In this document: positions 34,136-50,547 of the stretch, one piece after another
Layout of the letters: each line of letters starts with the position of its first letter
How positions within the stretch are numbered: position 1 is the stretch's first letter
NCBI GenBank assembly: GCA_963779755.1
Contig: CAVZZO010000003.1
Location: 1,024,001 to 1,088,000 of the forward strand
Length of the DNA: 64,000 nucleotides
Source of the DNA: an uncultured Gemmatimonadales bacterium
GTDB taxonomy: Bacteria; Gemmatimonadota; Gemmatimonadetes; Gemmatimonadales; GWC2-71-9
Direction: 5' to 3'
Notes under the pieces: generated by a model
The model's input: only the letters and a program-made list of their open reading frames with translations
The model's database searches: none
What the model was told of the DNA's origin: nothing
Program-made: the position numbers and the translations under genes

Positions 34136-34562
34136 ATTCCACCAGGGGCCCGGCCGGGACGCCGAGCCGGGGGGGCCCGATGGGCGAGCTGGATCACGGC
34201 GGGATGCCTGACGGCACTGCCATCATGGCCGCTCCGGCATCGTCCGGCGCCGATTCCGGAGCCGGGAGGCCAGGCCGATAGTTCCTGGCCGGCGGGTCGC
34301 TGGCACGATTCTGGATAGGGAACGGGACCGCCCGGGCGGCCGGGGGGGTCTTCGGACCTGGTGGCAGGGCGCAATCTCGGAAATCTGCCCGTCAAATTGC
34401 CCGGGTTATCATTACGTCACGTCGGGGGCCCCGGCAGGATCGGACGCCCAGGCTGTACGCCCCGACCGACAGCATGGAGACCACCGGCCAGGTTGCGGCC
34501 GGTGCGGACCGGTTCTACCGGTTCGCGGCCCGGACGATTCGCTCATGATCAGGGAGTGGGGA

Positions 34563-36423
34563 GTGACGCATATCGATGTGGCAGCCAGCGCCGAGGCCGC
34601 AGCCGCGGCGGAGACCGGCCCCGACGACCGCAAGGAACGCATGCACATCGTGATCGGCGGCCACGTGGATCACGGCAAGAGCACCATCATCGGCCGCCTC
34701 CTGGCCGACACCAACAGCCTGCCGGAGGGCAAGCTGGACCAGGTGCGGGCCTCCTGCGAGCGAAACGCCAAGCCGTTCGAATACGCCTTCCTGCTCGATG
34801 CCCTGAAGGACGAGCAGGCTCAGGGCATCACCATCGATGCGGCGCGGGTCTTCTTCAAGACCGGCAAGCGCGACTACATCATTCTGGACGCGCCGGGGCA
34901 TATCGAGTTTCTCAAGAACATGGTCACCGGCGCCTCGCGGGCGGAGGCGGCCCTTCTCGTCATCGACGCCAAGGAGGGCGTCCAGGAGAACTCCCGCCGC
35001 CACGGCTACATGATGTCCATGCTGGGCATTTCCCAGATGGCCGTGCTGGTGAACAAGATGGACCTGGTGGACTACTCCCGCGACGTGTTCGACCAGATCT
35101 CGCGCGAGTACCGCGCGCTTCCTGGAACAACTCGGCATGGAGCCTGCCGCCATCATACCCGTGAGCGGCCGGCACGGCGAGAACATCGCGTCGCAGGCCG
35201 AGGCGATGGGATGGTATCAGGGGCCCACCGTCCTGGACCTCCTGGATCGCTTCACCACCGAGCCCGCTCCGGTCGAGGCGCCATTCCGCATGCCGGTGCA
35301 GGGCGTGTACAAGTTCACCGCCCAGGGCGACGACCGGCGGATCATCGCCGGGACCGTCGAGACCGGCCGCATCGCGGCGGGGGACGAGGTGGTGTTCTTC
35401 CCCTCCGGCAAGAAGAGCCGGGTCCAGAGCATCGAAGCCTTCAACCGGCCCCCTCAGACCCGGGCGGAAGCCGGTATGGCCACGGGGTTCACTCTGGCCG
35501 AGCAGATCTATGTGAGCCGGGGAGAGATCGCGGCCCTGGCCGCACAGGCACGGCCGCGAGTGACCACCCGGCTGCGGGTGAATCTCTTCTGGCTGGGCAA
35601 GCGGCCGCTCAGCAAGCAGCGGGAGTACGCGCTGAAGCTGGGAACCGCCCGGGTCAGCATGCGGCTGGAGGAGGTGCACCGGGTGATCGACGCATCCACC
35701 CTGGATGCGCAGGAGCAGAAGCAGCAGATCGACCGGCACGATGTGGCCGACTGCACTCTGAAGCTCAACCGGGCTATCGCCTTCGACCTGGCCGACGAGA
35801 TCGCCGCCACCAGCCGCTTCGTGGTGGTGGACGATTTCGAGATCCGCGGCGGCGGGATCGTGCGCGAGGCGCTGCCCGACCGGCAGACCTGGGTGCGCGA
35901 CAAGGTCCTGCTGCGGAATCTCAAGTGGGAGCCCAGCAATATCCAGGGCGAACGGCGGGCCGAGAAATACAACCAGCGCGCTGCCCTCCTCCTCGTCACC
36001 GGCGATGTCGAAACCGACCGGAAGGCGCTGGCCAAGGGCCTGGAGTCCCGCCTCTTCGAGGACGGCAAGGTGGTCTACTACCTCGGCATCGGCAACGTGC
36101 TCTATGGCGTGGACGCCGACATCGAGCGCAGCCACGAAAACCGCCTGGAACACCTGCGGCGCCTGGCCGAAGTGGCCAACATCCTGCTGGATGCCGGGGT
36201 AATCCTGGTGGTCACCGCCTCGGAGCTGACGCAGGAGGATATCGAGCTCATCAAGACCACCGTAGACCCGGATCGGATCGAGACCATCTGGGTCGGTGAG
36301 CGGGTCACCACCGACCTCTCGCCCGACGTCGTCCTGACCGACAGCGCGGAGCAGGAGGGCGACCGGGTGGAGCGGATCAAGCGGCTGCTGCAGGAGAAGG
36401 GCGTGATCTACCGGCCATGGTGA
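34563..36423 (+). CDS. cysN: Sulfate adenylyltransferase subunit 1 with degenerate APS-kinase-like C-terminal domain; +1 frameshift near 35118
   Basis: [27 protein letters not shown] in the first frame; [21 protein letters not shown] in the second. Removing one base from CGCGCGCTTCCTG restores ...[12 protein letters not shown]. Confidence 0.85.
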
Positions 36424-37206: not shown

Positions 37207-39008
37207 ATGATGACTCACGAGAGCCACCGCAGATCAATCGGGCTGTTCCTGGGTCCAGTCCGTGCTGCGCTCTGGGTTGGTGCGGCAAGTGGCCTCGTTC
37301 AGGTGGCGGTCGAGCAGTTCGCCTGGCATTTTACCAGCGAAATCCGGAGCCTCGGCCCCAACATGATATGGATGGTTCCACTGGCCGTAATGCTGGCCTG
37401 CCTGGTGCCCGGGCTCGTGCTCGGACTCATTGCGCTCGCTCGCGGCAGGCCGTTGCCTGACGCGATGCTATACGGCCCGGTGCTCTTCCTGGGTGCGCTG
37501 AATCTGATCCTGTTCATTCCGGGCACGATTATTCTGTCGGATTATCTGATTGCCGCAGGGCTGGCGGTGATCGTCCTGCGGCTGGAGAGGCGCTACCATT
37601 GGCTGGACTGGCTCGTCCGCCGGACCGCGCTTCCCCTCCTGATGCTGCTGGCGGGGCTCACTGTGCTCGCGTTCGCAGGCGAGGCCATGCGGGAGCGCGC
37701 TGCTATTGCGAAGCTGCCTCCGGTACCCACCGGCAAGAACATACTGCTCCTGGTGCTGGATACTGTGCGAGGCATGGACACCGGCCTCGACGGTTTCGAC
37801 CGGCCGACCACTCCCGAGCTGGTGCGCTGGTCGGCGCGGGGAATCACCTTCTCCCACGCAATCGCACCCTCCTCGTGGACGCTGCCCAGCCATTCCACCA
37901 TGTTCACCGGCTATTGGCCTCAAGAGCTGGGAACTGACTGGAAGGTCCCTCTGAAGAGCAACGCCTACACCTTGGCAGAGTTCTTCGACAGCCTGGGCTA
38001 CGCCACCGCCGGGTTTGCAGCCAATCCCAGCTATGGAAGCCGCTATTACGGACTTGCCCAGGGGTTCCAGCATTATGAGGACTACCCGCTGTCGTTTGAG
38101 GAAGTCCTCACGAACGGCAAGCTCACGAGAGATTTCCTCAACCACCCCTGGGTTCGCCGCGTCTGGGGGTTTGACGATTACCTGGGACAGAAACAGGCGC
38201 CGGATGTGACCGGTCGGTTTCTTGAGTGGCTACCCCACAGGGGTGGCAGGCCGTTCTTCGCCTTCCTGAACCTGTTCGACGCCCACGAGCCGTACCTGCC
38301 GCCGGCCGGCTATGACAGCTTGTTCGCATCGAACACGGTCCGCCGGAATGATCTACTGGAGCACTTCCTTCATCAGGCTGAACGTCGGGAGAAGGAACAG
38401 ATGACGCCAGCCCAGGCGGAGCGCGAGCGTGAGGCGTACGATGCCGGTATCCGCTACATGGACACCTGGGTCGGGCGGATGTTGGACAGCCTGTATCGGC
38501 TGCACCTGCTCGACAGCACCATCGTCATCATTACGGCGGATCATGGAGAGCAGTTCGGTGAACACGGTAAGTTCGTACACGGTACTCGTTATACAGGCAG
38601 GTACTCGAAGTGCCCCTGCTCATCCTCGCCCCCGGCGAGCCCGGCAGGGGGACTCGTGTGGACCGGGTCGTGAGCCTGCGCGATCTCCCGGCCACTATTC
38701 TCGATCTGCTGGGCCGGCCCGATCACGCATTTCCAGGCACGACCTTGGCGGGCTGCTGGCGTGGCCCTGCCTGCGCAGCCAGCCCGGCGCTTTCCGAACT
38801 GCGTCTGGCCGCCGGCGGATGGGGAGCGTCTCTCTTCACAGATTCCTCTCACGCCATTATCTGGCACAATAACACCCACTTCTTTCTCTGGAAATCAGAC
38901 CCCGCGGAGAACGATGATCTGGCGAAGGCTCGGGGAGTACAGAACGTGGTCGCCTCCATCCGGGCGGCTCAACGCTCGAGTCAGAGGGCTGCGCTCTCCG
39001 ATGAATAA
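37207..39008 (+). CDS. Membrane-anchored sulfatase-like hydrolase/transferase 2; -1 frameshift near 38584
   Basis: VLDTVRG, PSSWTLPSHSTMFTG, DAHEPY, ADHGEQFGEHG. CACGGTACTCGTTATAC lacks one A; adding it restores HGNSLYRQVLEVPLL, as in paralog 3. Confidence 0.82.
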
Positions 39009-39381
39009 CCCCCGGAGCATGGTGGTCCCGGCCAAGCCCGACGCCACAGAAAGCGCAGCCGTCCTCTGGTTCACCGGCCTCTCGGGGGCCGGGAAGAGCA
39101 CCATCGCGAAGCGGGTGGCGGCCCGGTTGCGCCAGGCAGGCCACCGGGTGGAGGAACTGGATGGCGACGTCATCCGCGATATCTTCCCGGCGACGGGATT
39201 TACCCGCCCGGAGCGCGACCAGCACATCCGCCGGGTGGGCTGGCTGGAGCATCACTTGAGCGAGGGGCCGATGACCGAGGCGGCGAGTACCTCCCCTATG
39301 GGCCCGTATGGATCTGGATCTCTCCGAGACAGCCTTCCATCGGACCTCATCGCCATGCTGGCGCCGAGAGTTGACATATGA
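39001..39381 (+). pseudogene. cysC: 5' fragment of adenylyl-sulfate kinase (duplicate of cysC)
   Basis: 39058-39247 matches 41309-41498 except at 3 synonymous positions, then diverges into unrelated sequence. Confidence 0.85.
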
Positions 39382-41255
39382 GGGCTGGGTCCACGGGATC
39401 CCCCGGAATCCTCGAGTGGTATGAGCCGCTCATCCTGGCCGTCTGGATCGGTCTGGTGACGGGTCTCATTCAGGCCCTTGGGGTGCTGTTCCATCAGCGC
39501 GTGCTGGGTGATCTGATAACGCTGGGCCCCATGATGTGGTGGATGACTCCGCTGACGTTGGCGCTTCTGCTCGTCCCGGTAGCTGCAGTGGCCACCATTC
39601 TTGGCCGGTGGTGGCCGGGTATCTTCCGGTCTCGTTCCGTCCTTCTGGCCCTGTTGCTCACACCGGGCATCTTCAACGGCCTGCCTTTCTTCATCCCTAC
39701 AATGGGTTCGGGGGCGAGACTACTGTTTGCCGTTGGCATCGCGCTCGTCATCACCCGGATAGCAGAGCGGTTTCCTGTATCATCCCGGAGAATCATTGCT
39801 AGGACTCTTCTGCCGGTCGTTGGTGCCGTCACCCTGGCATTCCTGGCGACTCAACTGGCTCAACCAATCTGGGAACGATGGAAAATCCATACCTTAGCCA
39901 GGGCACCAAGCCACGCTCCTAACATCCTGCTACTTGTCCTTGATACTGTCCGGGGCGCGAACCTGAGCGTCAATGGTTATGGGCAGCCAACGACCCCATT
40001 CCTTGAGCGATACGCGAAGGGTGGCGTTCGATTTGCGAATGCGATCTCCACAGCCCCATGGACCCTCCCCTCGCATGCCAGCATGTTCACGGGCCACTGG
40101 CCTGACGAGCTCTCCGCCGACTGGGAAAGAGCTCTCGACGGATCTGCTCCGACGTTAGCGGAGGTTCTCAGCGCCCACGGGTACGTCACTGCCGGCTTCG
40201 TAGCCAACCTTGCGTATGTGAGCCGTGTCCACGGATTAAGCAGGGGCTTCGTTCACTATGAGGATTTCCGGGCTACTGCACCCGATTTCCTGGTCAGTGC
40301 CAAGCTGCCCCGGGATGTGGCGAACCTAGGGCGCGTTCGTAGGCTGGTGAGTTACTATGCGATTCTCGGGGAAAAGAAGGCCCCCGGGGTGGTCAACGAG
40401 GTTCTGCGCTGGCTCTCAGCGAGGAAGGCACACAGGCCCTGGTTCGTGTTCGCGAACTTCATCGACGCACACGAGCCCTGCATTCCTCCGGAATCTCTGG
40501 AGGAACGGCTAGGTAGCCCCGAGGTTCTGAAGGTGCGCCGGAAGCTGGGGCATTTGACTCACCTGCTATACCATGCGCTGTTGGAGAATAAGGCATCAGT
40601 TCTTTCGCCGGCTGGTGTAGAGCGGGAGCGCCTTGCCTATGATGCATGCCTCGCGTACCTGGACCAGAACCTGCAGCGTCTCCTTGATAGCCTCGCCACG
40701 CTTCGGCTGGACTCAAACACCGTCGTGATGATCGTCGCTGACCATGGCGAACAGTTTGGAGAACATGGACATTTTGTTCACGGGAATTCCCTGTATCGGC
40801 AGCTGATTCAGGTCCCCTTCCTCCTAGTCGCGCCGGGTCGTGTGCCGACGGGCGTGGTTGTCACAGATCCGGTTTCGTTACGGGATCTTCCTGCGACCAT
40901 CCTCGACCTGGCCGGCATCAACCAGGGGCCTATTCCGGGTAGCTCGCTTTCAGGATGTTGGACAGCTGATGGCTGTTCCGGCAGTCAGGTGATTTCAGAA
41001 CTCGTACTACCTGAAGGCCAACGCTCTTACTCGATAATCGAGGGCGGGCTACACTACATCAATTGGCGTGACCAGAAGAACTCCGGAGAACTCCTGTATG
41101 CCTGGCCTGATTCTGAGGAGACTCAGGACCTTGCTAAAGAGCCCGGATGGCAAAGTGCTGTAAGTAGGTTCCGCGCGGACTCGACAGATGCGGGAAACAG
41201 CCTTGCAGTCTGGCAATCCCGAGGCTCGCTACCATCAGAGTCCTTGGAGAGATGA
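39378..41255 (+). CDS. Membrane-anchored sulfatase-like hydrolase/transferase 3 (lower GC)
   Basis: PNILLLVLDTVRG, TAPWTLPSHASMFTG, DAHEP, ADHGEQFGEHGHFVHGNSLY. Confidence 0.85.
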   Translation: MRAGSTGSPGILEWYEPLILAVWIGLVTGLIQALGVLFHQRVLGDLITLGPMMWWMTPLTLALLLVPVAAVATILGRWWPGIFRSRSVLLALLLTPGIFNGLPFFIPTMGSGARLLFAVGIALVITRIAERFPVSSRRIIARTLLPVVGAVTLAFLATQLAQPIWERWKIHTLARAPSHAPNILLLVLDTVRGANLSVNGYGQPTTPFLERYAKGGVRFANAISTAPWTLPSHASMFTGHWPDELSADWERALDGSAPTLAEVLSAHGYVTAGFVANLAYVSRVHGLSRGFVHYEDFRATAPDFLVSAKLPRDVANLGRVRRLVSYYAILGEKKAPGVVNEVLRWLSARKAHRPWFVFANFIDAHEPCIPPESLEERLGSPEVLKVRRKLGHLTHLLYHALLENKASVLSPAGVERERLAYDACLAYLDQNLQRLLDSLATLRLDSNTVVMIVADHGEQFGEHGHFVHGNSLYRQLIQVPFLLVAPGRVPTGVVVTDPVSLRDLPATILDLAGINQGPIPGSSLSGCWTADGCSGSQVISELVLPEGQRSYSIIEGGLHYINWRDQKNSGELLYAWPDSEETQDLAKEPGWQSAVSRFRADSTDAGNSLAVWQSRGSLPSESLER

Positions 41256-41809
41256 GCACACTACACCATCCAGATTCCTTCATGACGGCTGATACGGCGC
41301 GACAGCCGGCCGTCCTCTGGTTCACCGGCCTCTCGGGGGCCGGGAAGAGCACCATCGCGAAGCGGGTGGCGGCCCGTTTGCGCCAGGCAGGCCACCGGGT
41401 GGAGGAGCTGGATGGCGACGTCATCCGCGACATCTTCCCGGCGACGGGATTTACCCGCCCGGAGCGCGACCAGCACATCCGCCGGGTGGGCTGGCTGGCG
41501 AGCCGGCTGGAGCACCACGGGGTGTTCGTCATCGCCTCGCTGGTGTCGCCCTACCAGGACTCGCGCCAGTTCGTGCGCGGCCTGTGCCGCCGGTTTCTGG
41601 AAATCTACGTCTCGACTTCGTTCGCCGAGTGCGAACGGCGCGACGTCAAGGGACTGTACGCCCGCGCCCGGCGGGGGGAAATCAGCCACTTTACCGGGCT
41701 GGACGATCCGTACGAGCCCCCGTCCGCGCCGGAGCTGGCGCTGGATACGGCGGGGATCACGGTGGAGCAGGCGGTGGAGAAGGTGATGGCACTGGTCGCT
41801 AGCTGCTAG
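41252..41809 (+). CDS. cysC: Adenylyl-sulfate kinase
   Basis: WFTGLSGAGKSTIA, LDGDVIR, LVSPY, RDVKGLY, FTGLDDPYE. Confidence 0.95.
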   Translation: MSTLHHPDSFMTADTARQPAVLWFTGLSGAGKSTIAKRVAARLRQAGHRVEELDGDVIRDIFPATGFTRPERDQHIRRVGWLASRLEHHGVFVIASLVSPYQDSRQFVRGLCRRFLEIYVSTSFAECERRDVKGLYARARRGEISHFTGLDDPYEPPSAPELALDTAGITVEQAVEKVMALVASC

Positions 41810-41870
41810 TCACCAGTCACCAGCTGCGATGGCCTTGACGACCAGCGAACTCACTACTCACGACCGCAAG

Positions 41871-41924
41871 CGACTAGCGACTAACGACTAACGACTAACG
41901 ACCAACGACCAACGACCAACGACT
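41871..41924. repeat. Heptamer tandem repeat CGACYAR, about 7.5 copies
   Basis: CGACTAG CGACTAA x3 CGACCAA x3 CGACT, immediately upstream of the cysD ATG. Confidence 0.9.
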
Positions 41925-41927
41925 CTC

Positions 41928-42809
41928 ATGGACCATCTCGACCAACTCGAATACCGCAGCGTACACATCTTCCGGGAAGCGTACGCCAACTTCAAGAACC
42001 TGTGCATGCTCTGGTCCATCGGGAAGGACAGCACGGTGCTGCTGTGGCTGGCGCGGAAGGCGTTCTTCGGGCACGCACCCTTCCCGCTGGTGCACATCGA
42101 TACGTCCTTCAAGATCCCGGAGATGATCCGCTACCGCGACCGGCTGGCCGCGGAGTGGAATCTCAACCTGATCTACGGGCAGAACCAGGTGGCGCTGGCG
42201 GAGAAACGCACCTTCCCGGACGGGGCGGTAGACCGGATCACCTGCTGCAGCCTGCTCAAGACCGAGGCGCTGAAGCACACGCTGAGCGGCGAATGGCCCC
42301 GCTTCCGCTTCAATCACGCGAAGAAGACCTACGAGCAGGACACCAATACCGAGCCCTTCACCGGGGTGATCGTGGGCGCGCGCGCGGACGAGGAAGGCAG
42401 TCGCTCCAAGGAGCGCTATTTCTCGCCCCGCAGCAACCAGAACCTGTGGGACGTGGGCGACCAACCGCCCGAATTCTGGAACCAGTACAAGACCGAGTTT
42501 GCGCCCGGAACCCACGTGCGGATCCACCCGCTGCTGGACTGGACCGAGCTCAACATCTGGGAGTACATCGAGCGGGAGAAGATCCCTACGGTATCGCTCT
42601 ACTACGACCAGGGCGAGGGCAAGCGCTACCGCTCGCTGGGCTGCTATCCCTGTACCCTGGCGGTGGAGTCCGACGCGAAGAACGTGGAAGAGATCATCGT
42701 CGAGCTCAAGAGCGGCAAGTTCGCCAACATCGCCGAACGCTCCGGCCGCGCCCAGGACAAGGACGACGGCGGCGGGCTGGAGACGCTGCGGAAGGACGGG
42801 TACATGTAG
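41928..42809 (+). CDS. cysD: Sulfate adenylyltransferase subunit 2
   Basis: [59 protein letters not shown]. Confidence 0.95.
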
Positions 42810-42815
42810 GAAGGA

Positions 42816-42871
42816 TCAGGATTCAGGAATCAGGAATCGGGAATCAGGAATCGGGAATCGGGAATCGGGAA
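42816..42871. repeat. Heptamer tandem repeat TCRGGAA, 8 copies
   Basis: TCAGGAT TCAGGAA TCAGGAA TCGGGAA TCAGGAA TCGGGAA TCGGGAA TCGGGAA. Confidence 0.9.
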
Positions 42872-42973
42872 TACAGGGCTCCACCCTTCCCGATCCTGCA
42901 GCGGTACATTCCTGCCGTCCTGCGACCGAGCGGCCTCCAATAGAAAGCCGCGAGGAAGTCCTTCAGGGCCGTG

Positions 42974-44326
42974 CTACTCTTCCGCCGGCTTGAAGGCGTT
43001 GGCGGTGAGGTCGCCCAGCAGCCCGTGCCAGACGTGGTTGGGATTATCCTCGACCTCGCGCACGATTGCCCGCATGCGGGCCAGTACCGGCGGCTCCTCC
43101 TCCTCGTAGACGTCTCCCTGCAGCAGCTTGAGCACGTCCAGCCGGTAGCGCGGATCGCGGATGAACGCGGTGAAGAGGACGTTGAGCCGGTAGTAGACGC
43201 TGATGAAATTGTACCAGTTCTTCGTGCCCCGCCGGATGGTCGACTCGTAGTCGTTGAAGGCGGCCCGGGAGCAGTCGCCTCCCTCCAGCGCCCGCAGAAT
43301 GTCGGTGTGGGCGAAACGTGAGCTGTTGAGCGCAATGCTGACGCCGGTGGAGAAGATCGGGTCCACGAAGCGGCCGGCGTCGCCCACCGTTAGCCAGTTG
43401 TCTCCGGCAATCTGGCTCATGCCATAGCTGTAGTCGCCCTCCTCGGTGAAGGCGCGCACCTGCTCGGCGCGGCGCAGGGCCTCGTGCAACTCCGGCCGGC
43501 TGGCCACGCAGTCCCAGAAGAACTTCTCCCGGTCGCCCGCGGCCTTGAAGTGCCGTTTCTGAGTGACCACGCCAACGCTGGTGACGGTGTCGCTGATGGG
43601 AATCTGCCAGACCCAGCTGTTGGTGATGGGCAGGAAGTGGACGTAGATGTAGTCTCCCTTCGTCCGGTCTCCCATCATGGTCGCATGCCGGTCGTAGCCG
43701 TCGAACCAGGTGTGGATGGCGTACTGATCGAACACCTTGTCCATCACCTTCAGCTTGAGCCGGTTCCCCAGGAAGGTGCGCCGGCCGCTGGCATCCACCA
43801 CCATGCGGCAGCTGGCCCCCGCCTCCTTCCGCCCCAGATTGAACCGGATCCGCGGCAGGCCCGGGTCGCTGAAATCTACGTCGCGGACACCGACCCCTTC
43901 GATCACCTGGGCTCCGAGCTTCTGGGCATGCTGCAGCAGTAGCGTGTCGAACTTCCCGCGGTCCACGTGGTAGGTGTAGTTCTGGTCTACCCCCTGCTGC
44001 TGCCGCTCCTCGAAGCGGATGTCGGCCATGCAATCGGCCTCCAATCCCTCCCACCCATGCTCGTAGGCGCGCGAGCTGCCGGTGGCGGTCCATATGGCCC
44101 CGAACTTGTGGGGGAATCCTGCCTCCTCCATGACGGGCAGGAAGTCCAGGTCCCGGAATACCCTGGTGCTCGAGGGAACCAGCGATTCGCCTACGTGGGG
44201 CCGGGGAAAAAGCTCGCGCTCGAAGACCGCGCAGGTCACCCCGGCCCTGGCCAGGTAGGCCGCCATGCTCGCGCCGGCGGGGCCGCCGCCGATGATGCCG
44301 ACATCGAAATCGGTCTGGGAAGTCAT
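42974..44326 (-). CDS. FAD-dependent halogenase, PltA-like (pyrrolyl-S-carrier protein halogenase)
   Basis: GGGPAG, HVGESLVP, catalytic-Lys region FPHKFGA, HVDRGKFD, WVWQIP, DYSYGM, FVDPIFS, YYRLNVLFTAF..DPRYRLDVLKLLQGDVY; closely follows PltA as I recall it. GGAGGA SD. Confidence 0.88.
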   Translation of the reverse strand: MTSQTDFDVGIIGGGPAGASMAAYLARAGVTCAVFERELFPRPHVGESLVPSSTRVFRDLDFLPVMEEAGFPHKFGAIWTATGSSRAYEHGWEGLEADCMADIRFEERQQQGVDQNYTYHVDRGKFDTLLLQHAQKLGAQVIEGVGVRDVDFSDPGLPRIRFNLGRKEAGASCRMVVDASGRRTFLGNRLKLKVMDKVFDQYAIHTWFDGYDRHATMMGDRTKGDYIYVHFLPITNSWVWQIPISDTVTSVGVVTQKRHFKAAGDREKFFWDCVASRPELHEALRRAEQVRAFTEEGDYSYGMSQIAGDNWLTVGDAGRFVDPIFSTGVSIALNSSRFAHTDILRALEGGDCSRAAFNDYESTIRRGTKNWYNFISVYYRLNVLFTAFIRDPRYRLDVLKLLQGDVYEEEEPPVLARMRAIVREVEDNPNHVWHGLLGDLTANAFKPAEE

Positions 44327-44485
44327 CGGCTCCTCCGGTCCGGGGCCGCCGGAGAGCAGGACCTGCAAGCGTTCGCGCAGCAGACGAATCCGGCGCGCGC
44401 GGCTGAGATCTTGTCAGCGCCCTTGCGGTCGATGGTCTGGTACCGGTTGCAGATCACCGTGAGATAGACCGATCGGAAATGGGGT

Positions 44486-44503
44486 TGTGGCCTGCCCGCC
44501 ACA
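44486..44503. promoter_or_regulatory. Palindromic enhancer-like site between the divergent halogenase and dehydrogenase
   Basis: (T)TGTGGCCTGCCCGCCACA(A). Confidence 0.65.
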
Positions 44504-44774
44504 ACGGCCGCAGCAGCACAGCAGGGATGATCCAGCCTACCGGCGGAATCGCGACGGCCGGTGACTCCCCGATACCCGTCCGGGAGCCGGAGCACCCTCC
44601 CGAGCACAAACCATGCCCTCGAGGCCTCCCTGCGGGCCGGGTGCCGGCCATGCCGAGGGCCGCTAGCTTACCCGGAGCAGGTGCCCGCAGCTGGAATGAG
44701 CCCGCAGCCCGGGGCCAACGCGCACAGTTCCTGCTGCCGGCGATATCGCTGGGACCACGGATGAGGAGCCGGTC

Positions 44775-45923
44775 ATGGATTTCGCCTGGTCTGTTGAACA
44801 GCTCGCGTTCCGGGACGCGGTCATCGACTTCGCACGTAGGTCTCTCCAGGACGATCTGATCTCGCGGGACCGCGCGAGCGAATTCAGCCGGGAGCAGTGG
44901 AGCCGGTGCGCCGAGTTCGGTATTCAGGGGCTTCCATTCCCCGAGGAATTCGGCGGGGCCGGCAGCGACATTCTGACGACCATCCTCGCCATGGAATCGC
45001 TGGGGTACGGCTGCCGGGACAACGGGCTGCTGTTCGGCCTCGCGGCGCAGATGTGGAGCGTGCAGATGCCGATCCACCAGTTTGCCTCGGCCGAGGCGAA
45101 GCACCGCTACCTGCCGAAGCTCTGCCGCGGCGAGTGGATCGGGGCCCACGCCATGAGCGAACCCGATTCCGGGTCGGACGCATTTGCCCTGCGCACCACG
45201 GCAGTCCGCGAGGGCGAAGAATACATCCTGAACGGCACCAAGACTTTCGTCAGCAACGGCCCCGTGGCCGACCTGTTTCTCGTCTTTGCCACCATCGACC
45301 GGAGCAAGGGCTTCCTCGGCCTCACCGGATTCCTGGTGGAGCGGGAGTGGCCGGGCGTCGGGGTGAGCCGGGAGATCGACAAGATGGGCCTGCGCACCTC
45401 GCCCATGGCCGAGGTGACGCTGGAGAACTGCCGGGTGCCGGCGGTGAACCGGATGGGCCGCGAGGGACGCGCGGGCGCCCTGTTCAACGACTCCATGGAG
45501 TGGGAACGGGCCTGCATCCTGGCCAGCGCCATCGGCACCATGGAGCGGCAGCTGGAAGAGTCCATCGCCTATGCTCAGCAGCGGCACCAGTTCGGCCAGC
45601 CAGTCGCCAAGTTCCAGGCCGTGGCCAACCGGCTGGTCGCCATGAAGCTGCGGCTGGAAACCGCGCGGCTGCTGCTCTACCGGGCCGCCTGGCGCAAGTC
45701 CCGGGGTGACGCGCAGTCTGGTATGGATGCCGCGCTGGCCAAGCTCTGCCTCAGCGAAAGCTGGGTGGCGTCGGCCCTCGATGCAGTCCAGATCAGAGGC
45801 GGGTACGGCTATACCACGGAGTATCAGGTGGAGCGGGAACTGCGGGACGCTGTGGGGGCGACCCTCTATTCCGGCACCTCTGATATTCAGAAGAACCTGG
45901 TTGCCCGCTACCTCGGCCTGTGA
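44775..45923 (+). CDS. L-prolyl-carrier protein dehydrogenase (PltE/RedW/AnaB-like acyl-CoA dehydrogenase fold)
   Basis: MDFAW start, LGYGCRDNGLLF, SEPDSGSD, FNDSMEWERAC, LYSGTSDIQ; these are signatures of the prolyl-ACP oxidase subfamily. Confidence 0.82.
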   Translation: MDFAWSVEQLAFRDAVIDFARRSLQDDLISRDRASEFSREQWSRCAEFGIQGLPFPEEFGGAGSDILTTILAMESLGYGCRDNGLLFGLAAQMWSVQMPIHQFASAEAKHRYLPKLCRGEWIGAHAMSEPDSGSDAFALRTTAVREGEEYILNGTKTFVSNGPVADLFLVFATIDRSKGFLGLTGFLVEREWPGVGVSREIDKMGLRTSPMAEVTLENCRVPAVNRMGREGRAGALFNDSMEWERACILASAIGTMERQLEESIAYAQQRHQFGQPVAKFQAVANRLVAMKLRLETARLLLYRAAWRKSRGDAQSGMDAALAKLCLSESWVASALDAVQIRGGYGYTTEYQVERELRDAVGATLYSGTSDIQKNLVARYLGL

Positions 45924-45932
45924 CCACATTGG

Positions 45933-45950
45933 TGTCGCAACCCTGCAACA
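45933..45950. promoter_or_regulatory. Palindromic enhancer-like site
   Basis: TGTCGCAACCCTGCAACA, followed by an AT-rich stretch (~45985-46020). Confidence 0.6.
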
Positions 45951-46046
45951 AGCATCAGCACCATCCCCGCTGGTCCGGCCGCGTCTATACAGCTTAATCG
46001 CTTTATTGGCAATATCTTAACGGCCTCTTCCAGCTTCAGGGCATGG

Positions 46047-46062
46047 TGGCACAGGCATAGCA
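46047..46062 (+). promoter_or_regulatory. Sigma54 -24/-12 promoter for the MBOAT-PCP-adenylation operon
   Basis: TGGCACAGGCATAGCA = TGGCAC..GG-N10-GC, 97 bp downstream of the palindrome. Confidence 0.65.
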
Positions 46063-46184
46063 CCCTCCACCTGGGTTTCGCCTTCAACCATGGTCGCTTC
46101 CCGCGGCCAGATCCGCCTCCGGCCGCCGGCACTCTCCCAGGACCGCCGGTGGGGAAGCCTCGCACTCCGGCAGGAGCAGTGTGA

Positions 46185-48737
46185 ATGACGGCTGGAACAC
46201 TGACGGCGGCAGCTCGGGAGCAAGCGGGTACCAGAATCGCCCGCGCGGACGTCCAGCAGCTCGCCCTGGTGACGGTGCAGCTGGTGCTGGCGCTCCTGGT
46301 GGTTCGGACGTTCCAGCTGGAGAGCCGGACGTTCTACAATATCCTGCTGCTGGCCGCCGGCGGTTTCCTGGTGAGCGCGCTACTCCCATTGCGCTTCCGG
46401 CAAGCCTGGTTCGTGGCCGTGTCGTTCACCGGGATCGGGGTCGCCTTCGGGGTGGCCGGAGGCGTGTGGCTGGTCGGCGCCGGCCTGTGCCTGATCGCCA
46501 TCTGTCACCTTCCGATCGCGTTCCGCTGGCGCGTGGTGGGCCTGCTGGCGGCGGCGGGCGGCCTGGCGCTCATGCGGGCAGGCAAGATCACCTCACCGTG
46601 GCCCCTGTCGATCTGGCCCATCCTGGGCTCGATGTTCATGTTCCGCCTGATCATGTACATGTACTCCCTGCGGTTCGACAACACGCCGCCGAAGCTGTCG
46701 CGGACGCTGGCGTACTTCTTCATGTTGCCGAACGTTGCGTTTCCGCTGTTTCCGCTGGTGGACTACGGCGTGTTCGCCCGGACCTACTACGAGACGGGCG
46801 CGTTCCGCATCTACCAGCGCGGCGTCAAGTGGATCGCCCGCGGCATGCTGCATCTGCTTCTCTATCGCCTGGTGTACTACCACCTGGTGATGCAGCCGGC
46901 CGATATCACCAGTCTGGGCGGCCTCCTGCAGCACTTCGCTTCCACCTTCCTGCTCTATCTCCGGGTATCCGGCCAGTTCCACATCGCGGTGGGGATGCTG
47001 CACCTCTTCGGCTTCCACCTGCCGGAGACGCACCACCTGTACTACCTGTCGTCCAGTTTCACCGACCTCTGGCGCCGGACGAATATCTACTGGAAAGATT
47101 TCATCATGAAATACGTCTACTATCCGGCGTATTTCAGGACACGGAGGCTGGGGCCGACGACGGGGGTCGTGATTTCCATGGGCGTGGTGTTCGTGCTCAC
47201 CTGGCTGTTCCATTCCTACCAGTGGTTCTGGCTGCGGGGCAGTTTTCCGCTGACGGCAACCGACGGCCTGTTCTGGTTCGTGATGACCGCCTTCCTCCTG
47301 GTCGCCGTGCTGAAGGAAACGCGGCAGGGACGACGACGGACCCTGATCACGGAGAAGCGCTGGCGCGTCCGCCGCGGCCTGGCGGCGGTGGCGATGTTCG
47401 CCATCATCAGCATGCTGTGGACCCTGTGGGACAGCAGTTCCGTACGCGACTTCCTGAGCCTGTTCCAGGTCGCCACCCGCGTGAGCCTGAAACAACTCCT
47501 GGCCATCGGAGGCATCGTGGGGCTGTACCTGGGGATCGCCGGGTGGCCGTGGGGCGTACAGACGCTGGCGGAGCGACAGAACAAGGCACCGAAGCACTGG
47601 TGGAGGCAGTCGAGCCTGCAGACCATGGCGCTCCTGGCCGGCCTCCTGGCGCTGGGCAACGCATGGACCCGGGAACACCTGCTCAACCGGACGGCACGAC
47701 AGGTCATGGTCTCCCTGCAGGAGAGCCGGCTCAACGACCGGGACGCCGCCATGCTGCAGCGGGGCTACTACGAGCAACTCATGAACGTCGAGCGCTACAA
47801 CAACCAGCTGTGGGACATGTACCGGGACAAGCCGCCCGGCTGGGTGGGGGCGACCAAGACCGATGCGTACCACGCGCTGCCCACCCTGCTGGGCGGCGAG
47901 TTGAAGCCGTTGGCTCGGCTGGAACTCAAGGACGCGCTGTTCAGCACCAACCGGTGGGGCATGCGCGACCGCGACTACACGTTGGAGAAGCCTGTGGGTA
48001 CCGTGCGGCTCGCCCTGCTTGGACCCTCGGACGTCATGGGCTCGGGCGTGACGGATTCGCAGACATTCGAGAATGTGGTGGAGCGCCGGCTCAACCGGGA
48101 GGCGGCGGCCGATTCGCAGCACTACGAGATCCTGAATTTCTCGGTAGCGGCCTTCAGCCTGGTCCAGCAGGCGGTAATGCTGGAGGAACGGGTCTGGAAG
48201 TTCGATCCGGATGCGGTGGCGGCCACCTACCATCCGGGATCCGACGGGCGAGTCGCCTACCAGCACCTGGCCAAGTCGTTCCTGGACAACATCCCGATCC
48301 ACGACGCGACGCTGAACGACATCATCCGGCGATCCGGGGTTCACCGGGGGGACGTACAGCCGGTGGTCTTTCGCAAGCTGCGGCCCTACAGCCGTGAGAT
48401 CGAGCAATGGTGCTTCCACACCATCGCCTCCGCTGCCCGGGCCCACGGCGTCCCGGCGCTCCTGCTGGTGGTGGACCCGCCGGGCGAACCCTCCAGAGCG
48501 GAGGATCCGATGCTCCCCATCGCCCGCCGGGAAGGCCTCGTCATCGCAGACATCCGCGACGCCTACGGCTCCCACGACCTGGATTCCCTGATGCTGGCCG
48601 AGTGGGATGAGCATCCCTCCGCGGAGGCACACCACCTGATGGCGCAGCGGATGTACCAGGAGCTCAAGGCCCACCCCGAATTTCTGCGACCTCACCGGCC
48701 CGAAGAGGCCGGAACCGCCACCCCGGAGGGGCAATGA
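46185..48737 (+). CDS. MBOAT membrane O-acyltransferase fused to an extracytoplasmic SGNH-like domain
   Basis: Multi-TM; SSFTDLWRRTNIYWKDFIMKYVYYP and TWLFHSY (catalytic His); C-terminal LLGPSDVMGSGV, NFSVAAFS, DEHPSAEAH. Confidence 0.82.
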   Translation: MTAGTLTAAAREQAGTRIARADVQQLALVTVQLVLALLVVRTFQLESRTFYNILLLAAGGFLVSALLPLRFRQAWFVAVSFTGIGVAFGVAGGVWLVGAGLCLIAICHLPIAFRWRVVGLLAAAGGLALMRAGKITSPWPLSIWPILGSMFMFRLIMYMYSLRFDNTPPKLSRTLAYFFMLPNVAFPLFPLVDYGVFARTYYETGAFRIYQRGVKWIARGMLHLLLYRLVYYHLVMQPADITSLGGLLQHFASTFLLYLRVSGQFHIAVGMLHLFGFHLPETHHLYYLSSSFTDLWRRTNIYWKDFIMKYVYYPAYFRTRRLGPTTGVVISMGVVFVLTWLFHSYQWFWLRGSFPLTATDGLFWFVMTAFLLVAVLKETRQGRRRTLITEKRWRVRRGLAAVAMFAIISMLWTLWDSSSVRDFLSLFQVATRVSLKQLLAIGGIVGLYLGIAGWPWGVQTLAERQNKAPKHWWRQSSLQTMALLAGLLALGNAWTREHLLNRTARQVMVSLQESRLNDRDAAMLQRGYYEQLMNVERYNNQLWDMYRDKPPGWVGATKTDAYHALPTLLGGELKPLARLELKDALFSTNRWGMRDRDYTLEKPVGTVRLALLGPSDVMGSGVTDSQTFENVVERRLNREAAADSQHYEILNFSVAAFSLVQQAVMLEERVWKFDPDAVAATYHPGSDGRVAYQHLAKSFLDNIPIHDATLNDIIRRSGVHRGDVQPVVFRKLRPYSREIEQWCFHTIASAARAHGVPALLLVVDPPGEPSRAEDPMLPIARREGLVIADIRDAYGSHDLDSLMLAEWDEHPSAEAHHLMAQRMYQELKAHPEFLRPHRPEEAGTATPEGQ

Positions 48738-48997
48738 CACGCGAGGAGATCACCCGGACCGTCAAGGAGTTCATTCTCTCTCACTTTCTTCCGGGAGAGG
48801 ACCCCGCGGCGCTGACCCCCACGACGGCTCTGATCACCGATGGAGTGCTGGATTCCCTGGCCACCCTGGAACTGGTCTCGTTCCTGGAAGAGCGCTACGG
48901 CATCGAGCTGGAGGCCCATGAAGTTGACGCTTCCCGGATCGGCACCCTGGAGGGCATCGCCACTCTGGTGCTCGGCAAGACGGGCAGCAAGGTCTAG
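48734..48997 (+). CDS. Stand-alone acyl/peptidyl carrier protein (PltL/DltC-like)
   Basis: 87 aa, GVLDSL phosphopantetheine site, FLEERYGIEL; ATGA overlap with the MBOAT gene. Confidence 0.9.
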   Translation: MTREEITRTVKEFILSHFLPGEDPAALTPTTALITDGVLDSLATLELVSFLEERYGIELEAHEVDASRIGTLEGIATLVLGKTGSKV

Positions 48998-49002
48998 CCC
49001 CG

Positions 49003-50547
49003 GTGCTGTTGCAGCAGTACCTGGACCGGTCAGCCGCCCGGTCGCCCGAGGCGATCGCGGTGGTGGATCCCGAACGGGGGGGCTGCATCTCCTACCGGGA
49101 CCTGGCGGTGCTGTCCGATCGGGTCCGTGACCGGTTGCGCTGTCAGGGGGTCGTTTCCGGCGATCGGGTCGGGATCTACCTGCCCAAGTCCATCGATGCG
49201 GTTGCGGCCCTCTTCGGCGTGCTCAAGACCGGTGCGGCCTACGTCCCCATCGATCCCGGCTCCCCGGCCTGGCGGGCCGCATACATCCTGGGCAATTGTG
49301 CGGTCCGGACCGCCATCGTGGAGGAGGGCTTCCTGGCGTCCCTCCGCGCCGATCCCGATGTACCCGCCATCCAGCCGCTGGTCGTCCCTCAGGCCGGAAA
49401 CGGGGGACTCCGCGCCGCGCTGGACGCCGCCGACGCTCTGGCACCCGCGCCCCCCAGCGAGACGGCCCGGCCCGGCCCCGAGGCGCTGGCCTACATCCTC
49501 TACACCTCCGGCAGCACGGGGAAGCCCAAGGGCGTGATGCTCTCGCAGCAGGCGGCCACCAGTTACGTAGACTGGTGCTCCGAAGTCTTCCGCCCGACCG
49601 CAGACGACCGCTTCTCGTCACACGCCCCGTTCCACTTCGACCTGTCCATCCTGGACATCTTCGTGCCGCTGAAACACGGTGCCCGGCTGGTCCTGGTCGG
49701 GGAGGAACTGGGAAAAGAGCCGCTGCGGCTGGCCCCGGTGATCGCCGGCCAGGGCATCAGTGTCTGGTATTCGACGCCCTCGATCCTCAACCTTCTGGCC
49801 CGCTACGGCAAGCTGGACCGCTACAGCTGGGGTGCGCTGCGGCTGGTCCTCTTTGCCGGAGAGGTATTCCCCGTGCCACAGCTTCGAGAGCTGAAGGCGC
49901 TCTGGCCCCGCCCGCGCTACTTCAACCTGTACGGACCGACGGAAACCAACGTCTGCACCTACTACGAAATACCCGCCGTGGTGCCGCCCGGGCGGAAGGA
50001 TCCCTACCCCATCGGGCGATCCTGCGAGCACCTGCGGTGCCGGGTGGTGGATCAGGACGGCCGGGAGGTCCGGCGGGGCGAGGAGGGCGAGCTGGTGGTG
50101 CACGGTCCCGGCGTGATGTCGGGCTACTGGAATCTGCCGGAGCAGAATGCCAGCGCGTTTCTGGTGGACCAGGGCGGAATGCGCTGGTACCACACCGGCG
50201 ACCTGGTGGTTGAGGAGCCGGAGGCGGGATACGTCTTTCACGGCCGTCGGGACCGGATGGTCAAGCGCCGCGGCTACCGGGTGGAGCTGGGTGAGATCGA
50301 AGCCGGGCTGGCGGCGCACCCCGGGCTGCGCGAAGTGGCCGTGACCGCGGCGGCAGACAACGCGTCCGGCGTGCGCATCAAGGCGTTCCTGGTCCATCAG
50401 GGAGAGCGGCCCTCGCTCATCGCGCTGAAGCAGTTCTGCGTGGAGCGGCTGCCGCGCTACATGGTCCCCGACCAGTTCGCTTTTCTCGACGCTCTGCCGC
50501 GTACCTCCACTGACAAGATCGACTATCAGGCCCTGAAAACGCTCTGA
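49003..50547 (+). CDS. Stand-alone amino-acid adenylation enzyme, proline-type (PltF/RedM/CloN4/AnaC-like)
   Basis: AYILYTSGSTGKPKG, SHAPFHFDLS, VWYSTPS, LFAGEVFP, NLYGPTETNVC, TSTDKID; hand-read specificity code DLLYLALVCK. Confidence 0.82.
   Translation: MLLQQYLDRSAARSPEAIAVVDPERGGCISYRDLAVLSDRVRDRLRCQGVVSGDRVGIYLPKSIDAVAALFGVLKTGAAYVPIDPGSPAWRAAYILGNCAVRTAIVEEGFLASLRADPDVPAIQPLVVPQAGNGGLRAALDAADALAPAPPSETARPGPEALAYILYTSGSTGKPKGVMLSQQAATSYVDWCSEVFRPTADDRFSSHAPFHFDLSILDIFVPLKHGARLVLVGEELGKEPLRLAPVIAGQGISVWYSTPSILNLLARYGKLDRYSWGALRLVLFAGEVFPVPQLRELKALWPRPRYFNLYGPTETNVCTYYEIPAVVPPGRKDPYPIGRSCEHLRCRVVDQDGREVRRGEEGELVVHGPGVMSGYWNLPEQNASAFLVDQGGMRWYHTGDLVVEEPEAGYVFHGRRDRMVKRRGYRVELGEIEAGLAAHPGLREVAVTAAADNASGVRIKAFLVHQGERPSLIALKQFCVERLPRYMVPDQFAFLDALPRTSTDKIDYQALKTL

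Follow-up and report, generated by a model that had tools for sequence, protein, structure and literature searches.

A candidate carrier-fed MBOAT-SGNH relay for halogenated pyrrole-2-carbonyl groups in a glycan island of a Gemmatimonadales bacterium

A five-gene cassette and its predicted carrier-bound product

We analyzed a 64,000-nucleotide stretch of DNA from an uncultured Gemmatimonadales bacterium (G000:C3:1024001-1088000, hereafter the window), part of a genome of 4.23 Mb in 4 contigs that is 96.97% complete and whose nearest relatives are metagenome-assembled genomes (MAGs) labelled Gemmatimonadales or Gemmatimonadota. Our subject is a cassette of five genes encoding a flavin-dependent halogenase, a dehydrogenase of the acyl-CoA dehydrogenase fold, an 850-aa protein in which an MBOAT and an SGNH domain are fused, an 87-aa carrier protein, and a stand-alone adenylation enzyme (the ligase). 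An earlier, sequence-only reading had taken the cassette for a Dlt-like system that decorates a surface polymer with halogenated pyrrole-2-carbonyl groups. All five genes are present at the coordinates first given, and in the reading frames chosen from G+C content at third codon positions (GC3) and protein family scans, GC3 is 0.84 to 0.90. The overlapping open reading frames (ORFs) 46181-48397 (+), 46593-48740 (−), and 44454-45929 (−) lacked family matches and had off-frame composition and were rejected as genes.

Table 1. Features of the cassette and of the adjoining sulfate-activation genes, in window coordinates
Feature	Coordinates	Strand	Basis
CysC (adenosine 5'-phosphosulfate [APS] kinase)	41252-41809	+	Pfam APS_kinase, 172 bits
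CysD	41928-42809	+	Pfam PAPS_reduct, 133 bits
FADH2-dependent halogenase, PltA/ChlB4/5buk clade	42974-44368	−	PDB and Pfam matches
Prolyl-carrier-protein dehydrogenase, acyl-CoA dehydrogenase fold	44775-45923	+	NCBIfam and PDB matches
850-aa MBOAT-SGNH fusion	46185-48737	+	AlphaFold model, fold search
MBOAT domain, residues 47-428	46323-47468	+	DltB fold; invariant N300 and H343
GYYE loop, G527-Y528-Y529-E530	47763-47774	+	Invariance between last membrane helix and SGNH domain
SGNH domain, residues 547-833	47823-48683	+	CgnD/esterase fold; S615, N651, D808, H810
87-aa carrier protein	48734-48997	+	PP-binding domain, DSL serine
Stand-alone adenylation enzyme, proline type	49003-50547	+	TIGR01733, pocket code

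By its sequence, the halogenase falls into the clade that acts on pyrrolyl groups held by carrier proteins. Its best PDB matches are 5buk_A (E 9.9e-176, 588 bits), which we take to be Mpy16, ChlB4 (7fco_A, E 5.1e-173), and PltA (5dbj_E, E 3.7e-170), and after these three pyrrolyl-carrier halogenases the next match reaches merely 1.1e-40. The Pfam Trp_halogenase model matches with 106 bits, and the GGGPAG and WVWQIP motifs and the K of FPHKFGA are identical residues in the alignment with 5buk, the lysine of the KFGA motif presumably being catalytic. With E values of 1e-170 to 1e-176 to PltA, ChlB4, and 5buk, the PltA-like identity claimed for this gene by the sequence-only reading is well borne out. 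The longest ORF opens at a TTG at 44368, while the probable start is the ATG at 44326, giving 450 aa; the gene is divergent from the dehydrogenase gene, across a gap of 407 to 449 bp depending on the start. It is the sole Trp_halogenase-family gene in the genome, which also holds two flavin reductases, both unlinked to the locus.

The dehydrogenase carries three acyl-CoA dehydrogenase domains. It scores 441.7 bits against the NCBIfam PigA model (cut-off 500) and 413.5 bits against the RedW-type model (cut-off 650), and its PDB matches are the prolyl-acyl carrier protein (ACP) dehydrogenase AnaB (4irn, 470 bits), 6cxt_B (333 bits), and PigA (5zw0, 304 bits). The earlier assignment to the prolyl-carrier dehydrogenases stood, on the PigA/RedW models and 4irn; the pyrrole-forming step that had gone with it is less secure, the closest solved enzyme being the pyrroline-forming AnaB. 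The product of AnaB, according to a review (PMC3252866), is (S)-pyrroline-5-carboxyl-AnaD, the result of a two-electron oxidation. AnaB stops at the pyrroline; the enzyme in the window may carry out a two-electron or, as we presume, a four-electron oxidation.

The carrier protein, recognized by a PP-binding domain (21.5 bits, cut-off 20.8), has its phosphopantetheine site at S41, the serine of a DSL motif and invariant in 41 of 41 sequences, as expected from its initial description as a carrier. Its best NCBIfam model, ACP_for_OlsHI, scores 95 bits, under the 130-bit cut-off (the ornithine-lipid ACP pathway is treated in PMC12493201). One AcpS-type transferase is encoded in the genome. The carrier ATG overlaps the TGA stop of the MBOAT-SGNH gene as ATGA, in agreement with the translational coupling first reported for this gene pair, and the ligase starts 5 nt past the carrier stop codon.

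The ligase passes the TIGR01733 cut-off of 317 with a score of 360 bits, motif-based reading of its specificity code gives DLLYLALVCK, and the K of motif A10 is present. The best single-domain PDB match is the L-proline--[L-prolyl-carrier protein] ligase 6o6e (6o6e_B, 340 bits); the 402 bits obtained with LgrA are two modules summed. When the pocket region alone was compared, 6o6e scored 115.6 bits and the proline ligase 7thn 82 bits, against at most 60 bits for D-alanine ligases. The nine pocket positions, D, L, L, Y, L, A, L, V, and C, which we presume to be correctly mapped onto Stachelhaus numbering, are identical to those of 6o6e in 9 of 9 cases, so that the proline-type code proposed from the sequence was recovered in full. 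Ligase sequences from the whole set of related loci, 77 in number and not de-duplicated, follow the pattern DLxYxALVCK in 69 cases, and the eight exceptions are nonribosomal peptide synthetase (NRPS) domains or broken hits. A literature search with the specificity-code strings gave no match. The ligase is thus proline-type by its pocket, and use of L-proline as its substrate is predicted.

Architecture of the MBOAT-SGNH fusion protein

The fusion gene is single-copy in the genome. Its 850-aa product has no Pfam match even at E 10 and no PDB sequence match; PF03062 is absent from the precomputed domains of 120 of its homologues, and the ESM Atlas returned only unnamed clusters. Its homologues, likewise about 850 aa long, number more than 3000; some are named DltB/MBOAT by JGI, and some carry PF13472. 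We therefore characterized the protein through its fold: an AlphaFold (AF2) model built from 44 homologues reached a predicted local distance difference test score (pLDDT) of 86.3 and a predicted template-modeling score of 0.82. The top Foldseek match of this model was DltB (8jem_A; E 7.6e-7, target-normalized template-modeling score 0.65), followed by HHAT and PORCN, and SGNH esterases matched the C-terminal part. Structural alignment with VIA-align placed residues 47-428 on DltB 8jem_B (Z 20.4, root mean square deviation 4.5, 361 aligned residues) and 6bug_C (Z 19.8), residues 547-833 on CgnD 8a2n_A (Z 20.6), and residues 606-835 on TesA-type esterases (Z about 15).

The genome's single canonical MBOAT (PF03062, 115 bits; ending FIYFQF) provided a reference for the catalytic residues. 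An hhalign comparison of the fusion family with this protein gave a probability of 74% and an E value of 2.7e-5, and in the profile alignment H343 falls on the H of LWHG and N300 on the H of WRRWH. An apparent lack of the MBOAT catalytic histidine, where WRRWH reads WRRTN, was dropped from consideration once the profile alignment had put the invariant MBOAT histidine at H343. Invariant positions in the 44-sequence alignment are H266, N300, H343, G527-Y528-Y529-E530, S615, N651, D808, and H810. Among copies from 77 loci in many phyla, N300 and H343 are kept in 86 of 86, S615 and N651 in 85 of 85, D808 in 80 of 81, and H810 in 81 of 81; H266 is likewise conserved in these roughly 80 to 86 copies. 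The MBOAT-SGNH identity given to the protein from its sequence was thus confirmed by fold matches and by conservation of the MBOAT histidine, the SGNH triad, and a Tyr-Tyr loop. At the canonical MBOAT locus (L172, G000:C1:861025-864666), a 366-aa gene with a signal-like N terminus follows the MBOAT gene and is possibly its SGNH/AlgJ-type partner.

The Tyr-Tyr loop, GYYE, is invariant in 44 of 44 sequences and in all 83 to 84 copies, and it is the sole low-confidence stretch within the fusion protein (pLDDT <50, residues 527-538). In DltX and PatA an FXYXXF acyl-shuttle tyrosine occupies the equivalent place, as described in PMC12148441, and by analogy the GYYE loop is a candidate for this role. 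ORFs of at least 25 aa in the gaps 44368-44775 and 45923-46185, considered as possible DltX-like small genes, look like off-frame noise and were rejected. The SGNH domain is predicted to be extracytoplasmic because, under the positive-inside rule, the loop at residues 377-397 (10 K+R) is followed by three helices.

Complexes predicted for the carrier with residues 1-520 of the fusion had a median ipSAE interface score of 0.60 (runs 0.60, 0.71, and 0.59), with a best control of 0.00, and the runs agreed in at least 86% of contacts with a partner pLDDT of at least 81. For comparison, 116 of 157 solved complexes attained the ipSAE mark, as did 2 of 215 mismatches; of these, just 18 of the 157 solved complexes, but both mismatches, attained it at 0.60 or under. 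The modeling thus gives weak support to docking of the carrier on the MBOAT domain, and since the DltB-DltC complex has been solved, the pass may mirror likeness to a known structure.

Distribution of the operon and its genomic setting

A scan of one genome per species for relatives of the fusion protein yielded more than 605 matches, of which the best 77 loci were analyzed. The carrier is present at 66 of these loci, the ligase at 55, the dehydrogenase at 52, all three at 48, and a halogenase at 10; many of the misses are short contigs. The loci come from Gemmatimonadota, Beta-, Gamma-, Alpha-, and Deltaproteobacteria, Acidobacteriota, Chloroflexota, Planctomycetota, Verrucomicrobiota, Binatia, Methylomirabilota, and others. 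Among the proteobacterial ones is that of the cultured Steroidobacter flavus CGMCC 1.10759 (L110), which has the core operon and no halogenase. The ten loci that hold a halogenase belong to Gemmatimonadota, to one Acidobacteria MAG (L107), and to one Anaerolineaceae MAG (L129). The core operon consists of the MBOAT-SGNH, carrier, ligase, and dehydrogenase genes and is widespread, and the halogenase is an add-on to it. The synteny that the sequence-only reading proposed to look for holds for the four-gene core, at 48 of 77 loci, and extends to a halogenase at 10 of 77, with close metagenomic relatives of the halogenase lying mostly outside such cassettes. Clustering of ORFs from the 77 loci revealed no conserved fifth gene, no family being found at more than 9 loci, and the recurrent extra neighbors of the core operon in other phyla are polysaccharide genes only: GT4 glycosyltransferases (9 loci), asparagine synthase (7), Bac_transf (6), carbamoyltransferase (5), and deacetylase (4).

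In a quickly built tree of 69 distinct dehydrogenase sequences, whose midpoint root served for drawing only, the halogenase-linked loci require at least 5 to 6 label changes, and L107 and L129 are nested among halogenase-free loci. The halogenase thus appears from this tree to have joined the operon at several separate places. Twenty-seven dehydrogenase loci besides that of the window were also inspected: the fusion is present at 17 and one or more flavin halogenases at 10. Among 401 sampled Gemmatimonadota genomes, some of which also contributed to the 77 loci, the halogenase (E ≤1e-60) occurs in 10 and the dehydrogenase (E ≤1e-110) in 29, a count that includes the unpublished genome G057, on which no other result draws; the dehydrogenase is present in 9 of the 10 halogenase genomes versus 20 of the 391 others. 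In a sample of 301 Acidobacteriota genomes, the corresponding figures are 4 of 6 and 15 of 295. These co-occurrences are given as counts, related genomes not being independent.

CysC and CysD, which function in sulfate activation, adjoin the cassette both in the window and in relatives of the same family, and the order CysC-CysD-halogenase-dehydrogenase is repeated in L037-L040, L067, L069, L092, L168, and L236. In a sister genus, CysC and CysD are followed by between one and three distant halogenase paralogues, then by the dehydrogenase, fusion, carrier, and ligase genes, with another fusion gene last; a PltA-like halogenase (75% identity) lies elsewhere, beside an Na/H exchanger, in 5 of 6 genomes. 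Between one and three extra halogenase paralogues stand between CysD and the dehydrogenase in L037-L041, L066, L067, L069, L093-L095, L099, L149, and L168; they are about 30% identical to the PltA-like enzyme, and their best PDB match is still PltA (197 bits). Many of these paralogue-bearing relatives also have a second MBOAT-SGNH gene, tandem or flanking. In one genome the core operon (L025, G315:C14) and a halogenase of 45% identity (L085, G315:C60) lie on different contigs, the neighbors of this halogenase being a split MBOAT/SGNH pair, a carrier-domain protein, a phosphopantetheinyl transferase, a sulfotransferase, and the terminal part of an NRPS gene.

Close relatives of the halogenase also occur in a separate module, found in the sister genus (L019-L023) and in metagenome loci (L175, L180, L201, L219, and L230). 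It comprises one or two PltA-like halogenases 67 to 76% identical to that of the window, an ORF of 160 to 200 aa without a family, and a transporter of the Na_H_Exchanger family, with no proline-pathway gene near. The exchanger is 55% identical between phyla and possibly has a role in halide supply. No orthologue of it was found in the window genome, where the best match has 27 to 32% identity.

The wider surroundings of the cassette agree with the earlier description of its flanks as glycosyltransferase and sulfate-activation genes. Upstream lie a PEP-CTERM-type sigma-54 response regulator and its kinase, a chain-length/tyrosine-kinase protein, a priming sugar transferase, exosortase EpsH, EpsI, glycosyltransferases, three sulfatase-family membrane proteins, and CysN/C, CysQ, CysC, and CysD. 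Downstream are GT2 genes, an epimerase, a GFO/IDH/MocA oxidoreductase, LPG_synthase_TM, and PMT_2-type GT-C proteins. The G+C content is 0.61 to 0.67 at window positions 38000-50000, versus about 0.70 for the remainder, and this low-GC stretch, spanning the cassette as well as the sulfatase/CysC/CysD block, was possibly acquired later.

Two of the sulfur genes are irregular. The CysN/CysNC-like gene at 34545-36423 is divided between two frames: ORF 34545-36299 has a CysN-like GTPase domain (residues 31-188), and ORF 35137-36423 has EF-Tu domain 2, a C-terminal domain, and a partial APS kinase, with an apparent frameshift near 35.1 to 35.2 kb. The 206-aa ORF 38761-39381, which sits between two sulfatase-family genes, covers the first half of an APS kinase only (profile positions 2-80 of 152), the full CysC following further downstream. 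A promoter and terminator scan of the window was uninformative (0 promoters; 4 terminator-like sites versus 3.5 expected), and Rfam gave 0 matches in it. No RNA dataset was found to share sequence words with the window; one soil DNA run shares a small fraction of them (0.15).

A predicted relay to the envelope, its alternatives, and known systems

No ketosynthase (KS), condensation, or thioesterase domain was found among about 55 ORFs scanned in the window, in keeping with the statement of the sequence-only reading that its 64 kb hold no polyketide synthase (PKS), condensation, or thioesterase gene. Genome-wide, condensation domains gave 0 matches, no modular PKS was found, the KS genes being of fatty acid synthase size in open frames of at most 578 aa, and thioesterases gave just weak matches, all far from the locus. 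A stand-alone 557-aa KS lies about 570 kb away. That reading had also allowed that a PKS or NRPS elsewhere might consume the pyrrolyl-carrier; none was found in this 97%-complete genome.

We propose, and regard as moderately probable, that a Dlt-like relay moves a (halo)pyrrole-2-carbonyl group from the carrier across the membrane to an envelope acceptor. The ligase would adenylate L-proline and load it onto S41 of the carrier, and the flavin dehydrogenase would convert prolyl-S-carrier to pyrrole-2-carbonyl-S-carrier. The PltA-clade halogenase would chlorinate or brominate the carrier-bound pyrrole, at positions and with a halide that are presumed, using FADH2 from an unlinked flavin reductase. 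The carrier would then dock on the cytoplasmic face of the MBOAT domain, where H343 is predicted to catalyze acyl transfer through the membrane to a tyrosine of the GYYE loop. The extracytoplasmic SGNH domain (S615/D808/H810) would finally take up the acyl group and esterify the acceptor, which is most likely a (probably sulfated) glycan of the exosortase-type island. Our in silico analysis supports the interpretation first offered for this locus, its chemistry and acceptor standing as predictions, with three corrections: the halogenase is an add-on, the closest solved dehydrogenase is AnaB, and close metagenomic relatives of the halogenase lie mostly outside the cassette.

Several observations weigh against this relay. 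Both NCBIfam prolyl-dehydrogenase scores lie under their cut-offs, and the closest solved relative of the dehydrogenase, AnaB, is a two-electron enzyme. The Pfam MBOAT model (PF03062) fails to match the 850-aa protein, and the canonical FXYXXF shuttle motif is absent from it, GYYEQL being merely similar. Two of the six halogenase-bearing Acidobacteriota genomes are without the dehydrogenase at E 1e-100. Among 79 metagenome loci with a 60 to 82% identical halogenase, the fusion occurs in 8 and the dehydrogenase in 8, and 27 of the 34 such loci of at least 9 kb are without any cassette gene; in the five of these outside loci that were annotated, and in five sister-genus genomes, the halogenase/small ORF/Na-H-exchanger module takes its place. 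The trio of dehydrogenase, ligase, and carrier is also found without the fusion, beside NRPS genes (L079 and L084) or beside a FemAB-like acetyltransferase (L076 and L078), and the acyl-carrier is therefore not bound to a single fate. In the latter two Gemmatimonadota loci (L076, 12282-13310; L078, 3-800), Acetyltransf_6 (FemAB-like) and GT4 genes accompany the trio, an arrangement by which a similar decoration might be made in the cytoplasm.

Of the alternatives, the one that survives best, although we consider it unlikely, is export followed by release: the SGNH domain would act as a hydrolase, and free halopyrrole-2-carboxylic acid or a decarboxylated halopyrrole would be secreted as an antibiotic or signal, with nothing bound to the surface. 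Pyrrolyl-carrier pathways that end in hydrolytic release exist, the Bmp brominase-thioesterase pair being a precedent, and the closest folds of the C-terminal domain are mostly hydrolases (TesA and GDSL esterases; Z about 15). A cytoplasmic thioesterase would, however, be far cheaper for this purpose than a 12-helix relay, and the operon stands among polysaccharide genes in many phyla. Moreover, the studied MBOAT/SGNH pairs treated in PMC12148441 all have a transferase as their SGNH partner.

A slightly less probable alternative keeps the same relay and changes its acceptor to a membrane lipid or glycolipid, peptidoglycan, or an exosortase-sorted surface protein. No single neighbor family is present at more than 9 of the 77 fusion loci, and the acceptor may therefore be a housekeeping envelope component; yet the extra neighbors that do recur are all polysaccharide-synthesis genes. 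Similarly, the LPG_synthase_TM and GT-C (PMT_2) membrane genes downstream and the below-cut-off match of the carrier to the ornithine-lipid ACP model (95 bits) are compatible with a lipid or protein acceptor, but the cassette itself lies here within an exosortase exopolysaccharide island.

It is improbable, in our judgment, that the dehydrogenase is AnaB-like in its product, so that a pyrroline-5-carbonyl (dehydroprolyl) group is transferred and the halogenase is a mere neighbor with another substrate. This explanation draws on the two-electron product of AnaB, the closest solved relative, and on the position of most close halogenase relatives, away from the cassette in the Na/H exchanger module. 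It is opposed by the halogenase sequence, which is two-thirds like those of pyrrolyl-S-carrier halogenases (E ≤1e-170) and far from others (1e-40), and by the joint presence of halogenase and dehydrogenase in 13 of 16 halogenase genomes from two phyla. The halogenase, moreover, seems from the tree to have entered the operon at several distinct points and is here divergently transcribed 407 to 449 bp from the dehydrogenase. That the cassette instead makes a halopyrrolyl starter for a PKS or NRPS elsewhere, as for pyoluteorin, with an unrelated MBOAT-SGNH, is very improbable: this is the classical fate of a pyrrolyl-S-carrier, the dehydrogenase-ligase pair does lie beside NRPS genes in other Gemmatimonadota (L079 and L084), and the stand-alone KS is encoded about 570 kb away, but the 97%-complete genome has no condensation domain, no KS frame over 578 aa, and no nearby thioesterase, the carrier is translationally coupled to the MBOAT-SGNH gene, and the four genes occur together at 48 of 77 loci.

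Extending the proposed relay beyond this genome, we tentatively suggest, as an idea slightly more apt to fail than to hold, that pyrrole-2-carbonyl esters are a widespread unseen modification of envelope glycans, made through fused MBOAT-SGNH proteins that receive their acyl groups from proline-loading carrier systems in at least 10 phyla and here halogenated on a sulfated exosortase-dependent exopolysaccharide. Polyhalogenation would be expected where three or four halogenases are present, and a natural-product pharmacophore would be carried on the cell surface. Our literature search turned up no account of an MBOAT system fed with pyrrole or proline, and the view that no example had been described is so far unchallenged. 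If correct, the proposal would join carrier-protein natural-product chemistry with envelope polymer acylation, fields so far apart, and would bring to surface modification a new class that is heteroaromatic and, in some lineages, organohalogen. It would give a function to a large unannotated MBOAT-SGNH family (>3000 homologues; >605 genomic matches). Outside Dlt, no earlier MBOAT/SGNH relay would have depended on a carrier protein, and the relay would also be the first in which the two domains are fused. The fusion would offer a simple system for studies of the tyrosine acyl-shuttle mechanism, and halogenated exopolymers of abundant soil phyla could bear on natural organohalogens in soil organic matter.

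The enzymes that build the carrier-bound group resemble those of the pyrrolyl-S-carrier pathways PltF/PltL/PltE/PltA (pyoluteorin), Bmp1-4, PigI/G/A, RedM/O/W, and CloN3-5, with which they share a proline ligase, a carrier, a flavin dehydrogenase, and an on-carrier halogenase. In those pathways the pyrrole is passed to a PKS, an NRPS, a thioesterase, or a soluble acyltransferase to give a diffusible metabolite, whereas here no such consumer was found in the genome and the partner is the membrane-bound MBOAT-SGNH protein. The anatoxin-a starter pathway AnaC/AnaD/AnaB likewise combines a proline ligase with a carrier and provides the closest solved dehydrogenase (4irn). It differs in stopping at (S)-pyrroline-5-carboxyl-ACP and feeding a PKS (PMC3252866), whereas the cassette has no PKS and includes a halogenase of the pyrrole type.

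On the membrane side, PatA/PatB, AlgI/AlgJ/AlgX, and WssH resemble the predicted system in that an MBOAT and an SGNH protein of Gram-negative bacteria relay acyl groups to extracytoplasmic polymers, with extra helices past the DltB-like core and a tyrosine shuttle; the canonical MBOAT of this genome, with its terminal FIYFQF, is of this kind. In contrast to the carrier and fusion found here, these systems use an acetyl-CoA donor, no carrier, and separate MBOAT and SGNH proteins. Among the MBOAT/SGNH pathways covered in PMC12148441, the source for these features, a carrier protein is found in Dlt only, and the fused form described there is AT3-SGNH, not MBOAT-SGNH, the MBOAT and SGNH being separate proteins.

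The closest functional counterpart is the Dlt pathway of Firmicutes (DltA, DltC, DltB, DltX, and DltD), which D-alanylates teichoic acids. In both systems a stand-alone ligase loads a small carrier, the MBOAT has a conserved histidine, and the SGNH partner has a Ser/Asp/His triad; DltB is the best structural match of the fusion (Z 20.4), and the donor is a carrier protein rather than an acyl-CoA, as described for Dlt in the same source (PMC12148441). The cargo predicted here is proline-derived, oxidized, and halogenated, in place of the D-alanine of Dlt, whose ligases score at most 60 bits on the pocket region, and two tailoring enzymes would act on it while it is carrier bound. Whereas Dlt employs DltB, DltX, and DltD, a single polypeptide combines MBOAT and SGNH here; no convincing DltX gene was found in the intergenic gaps, and an internal GYYE loop may play the part of the C-terminal FXYXXF motif. 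The host is moreover of diderm type, with no teichoic acid genes at the locus. The system is predicted to work like Dlt and is not a Dlt orthologue.

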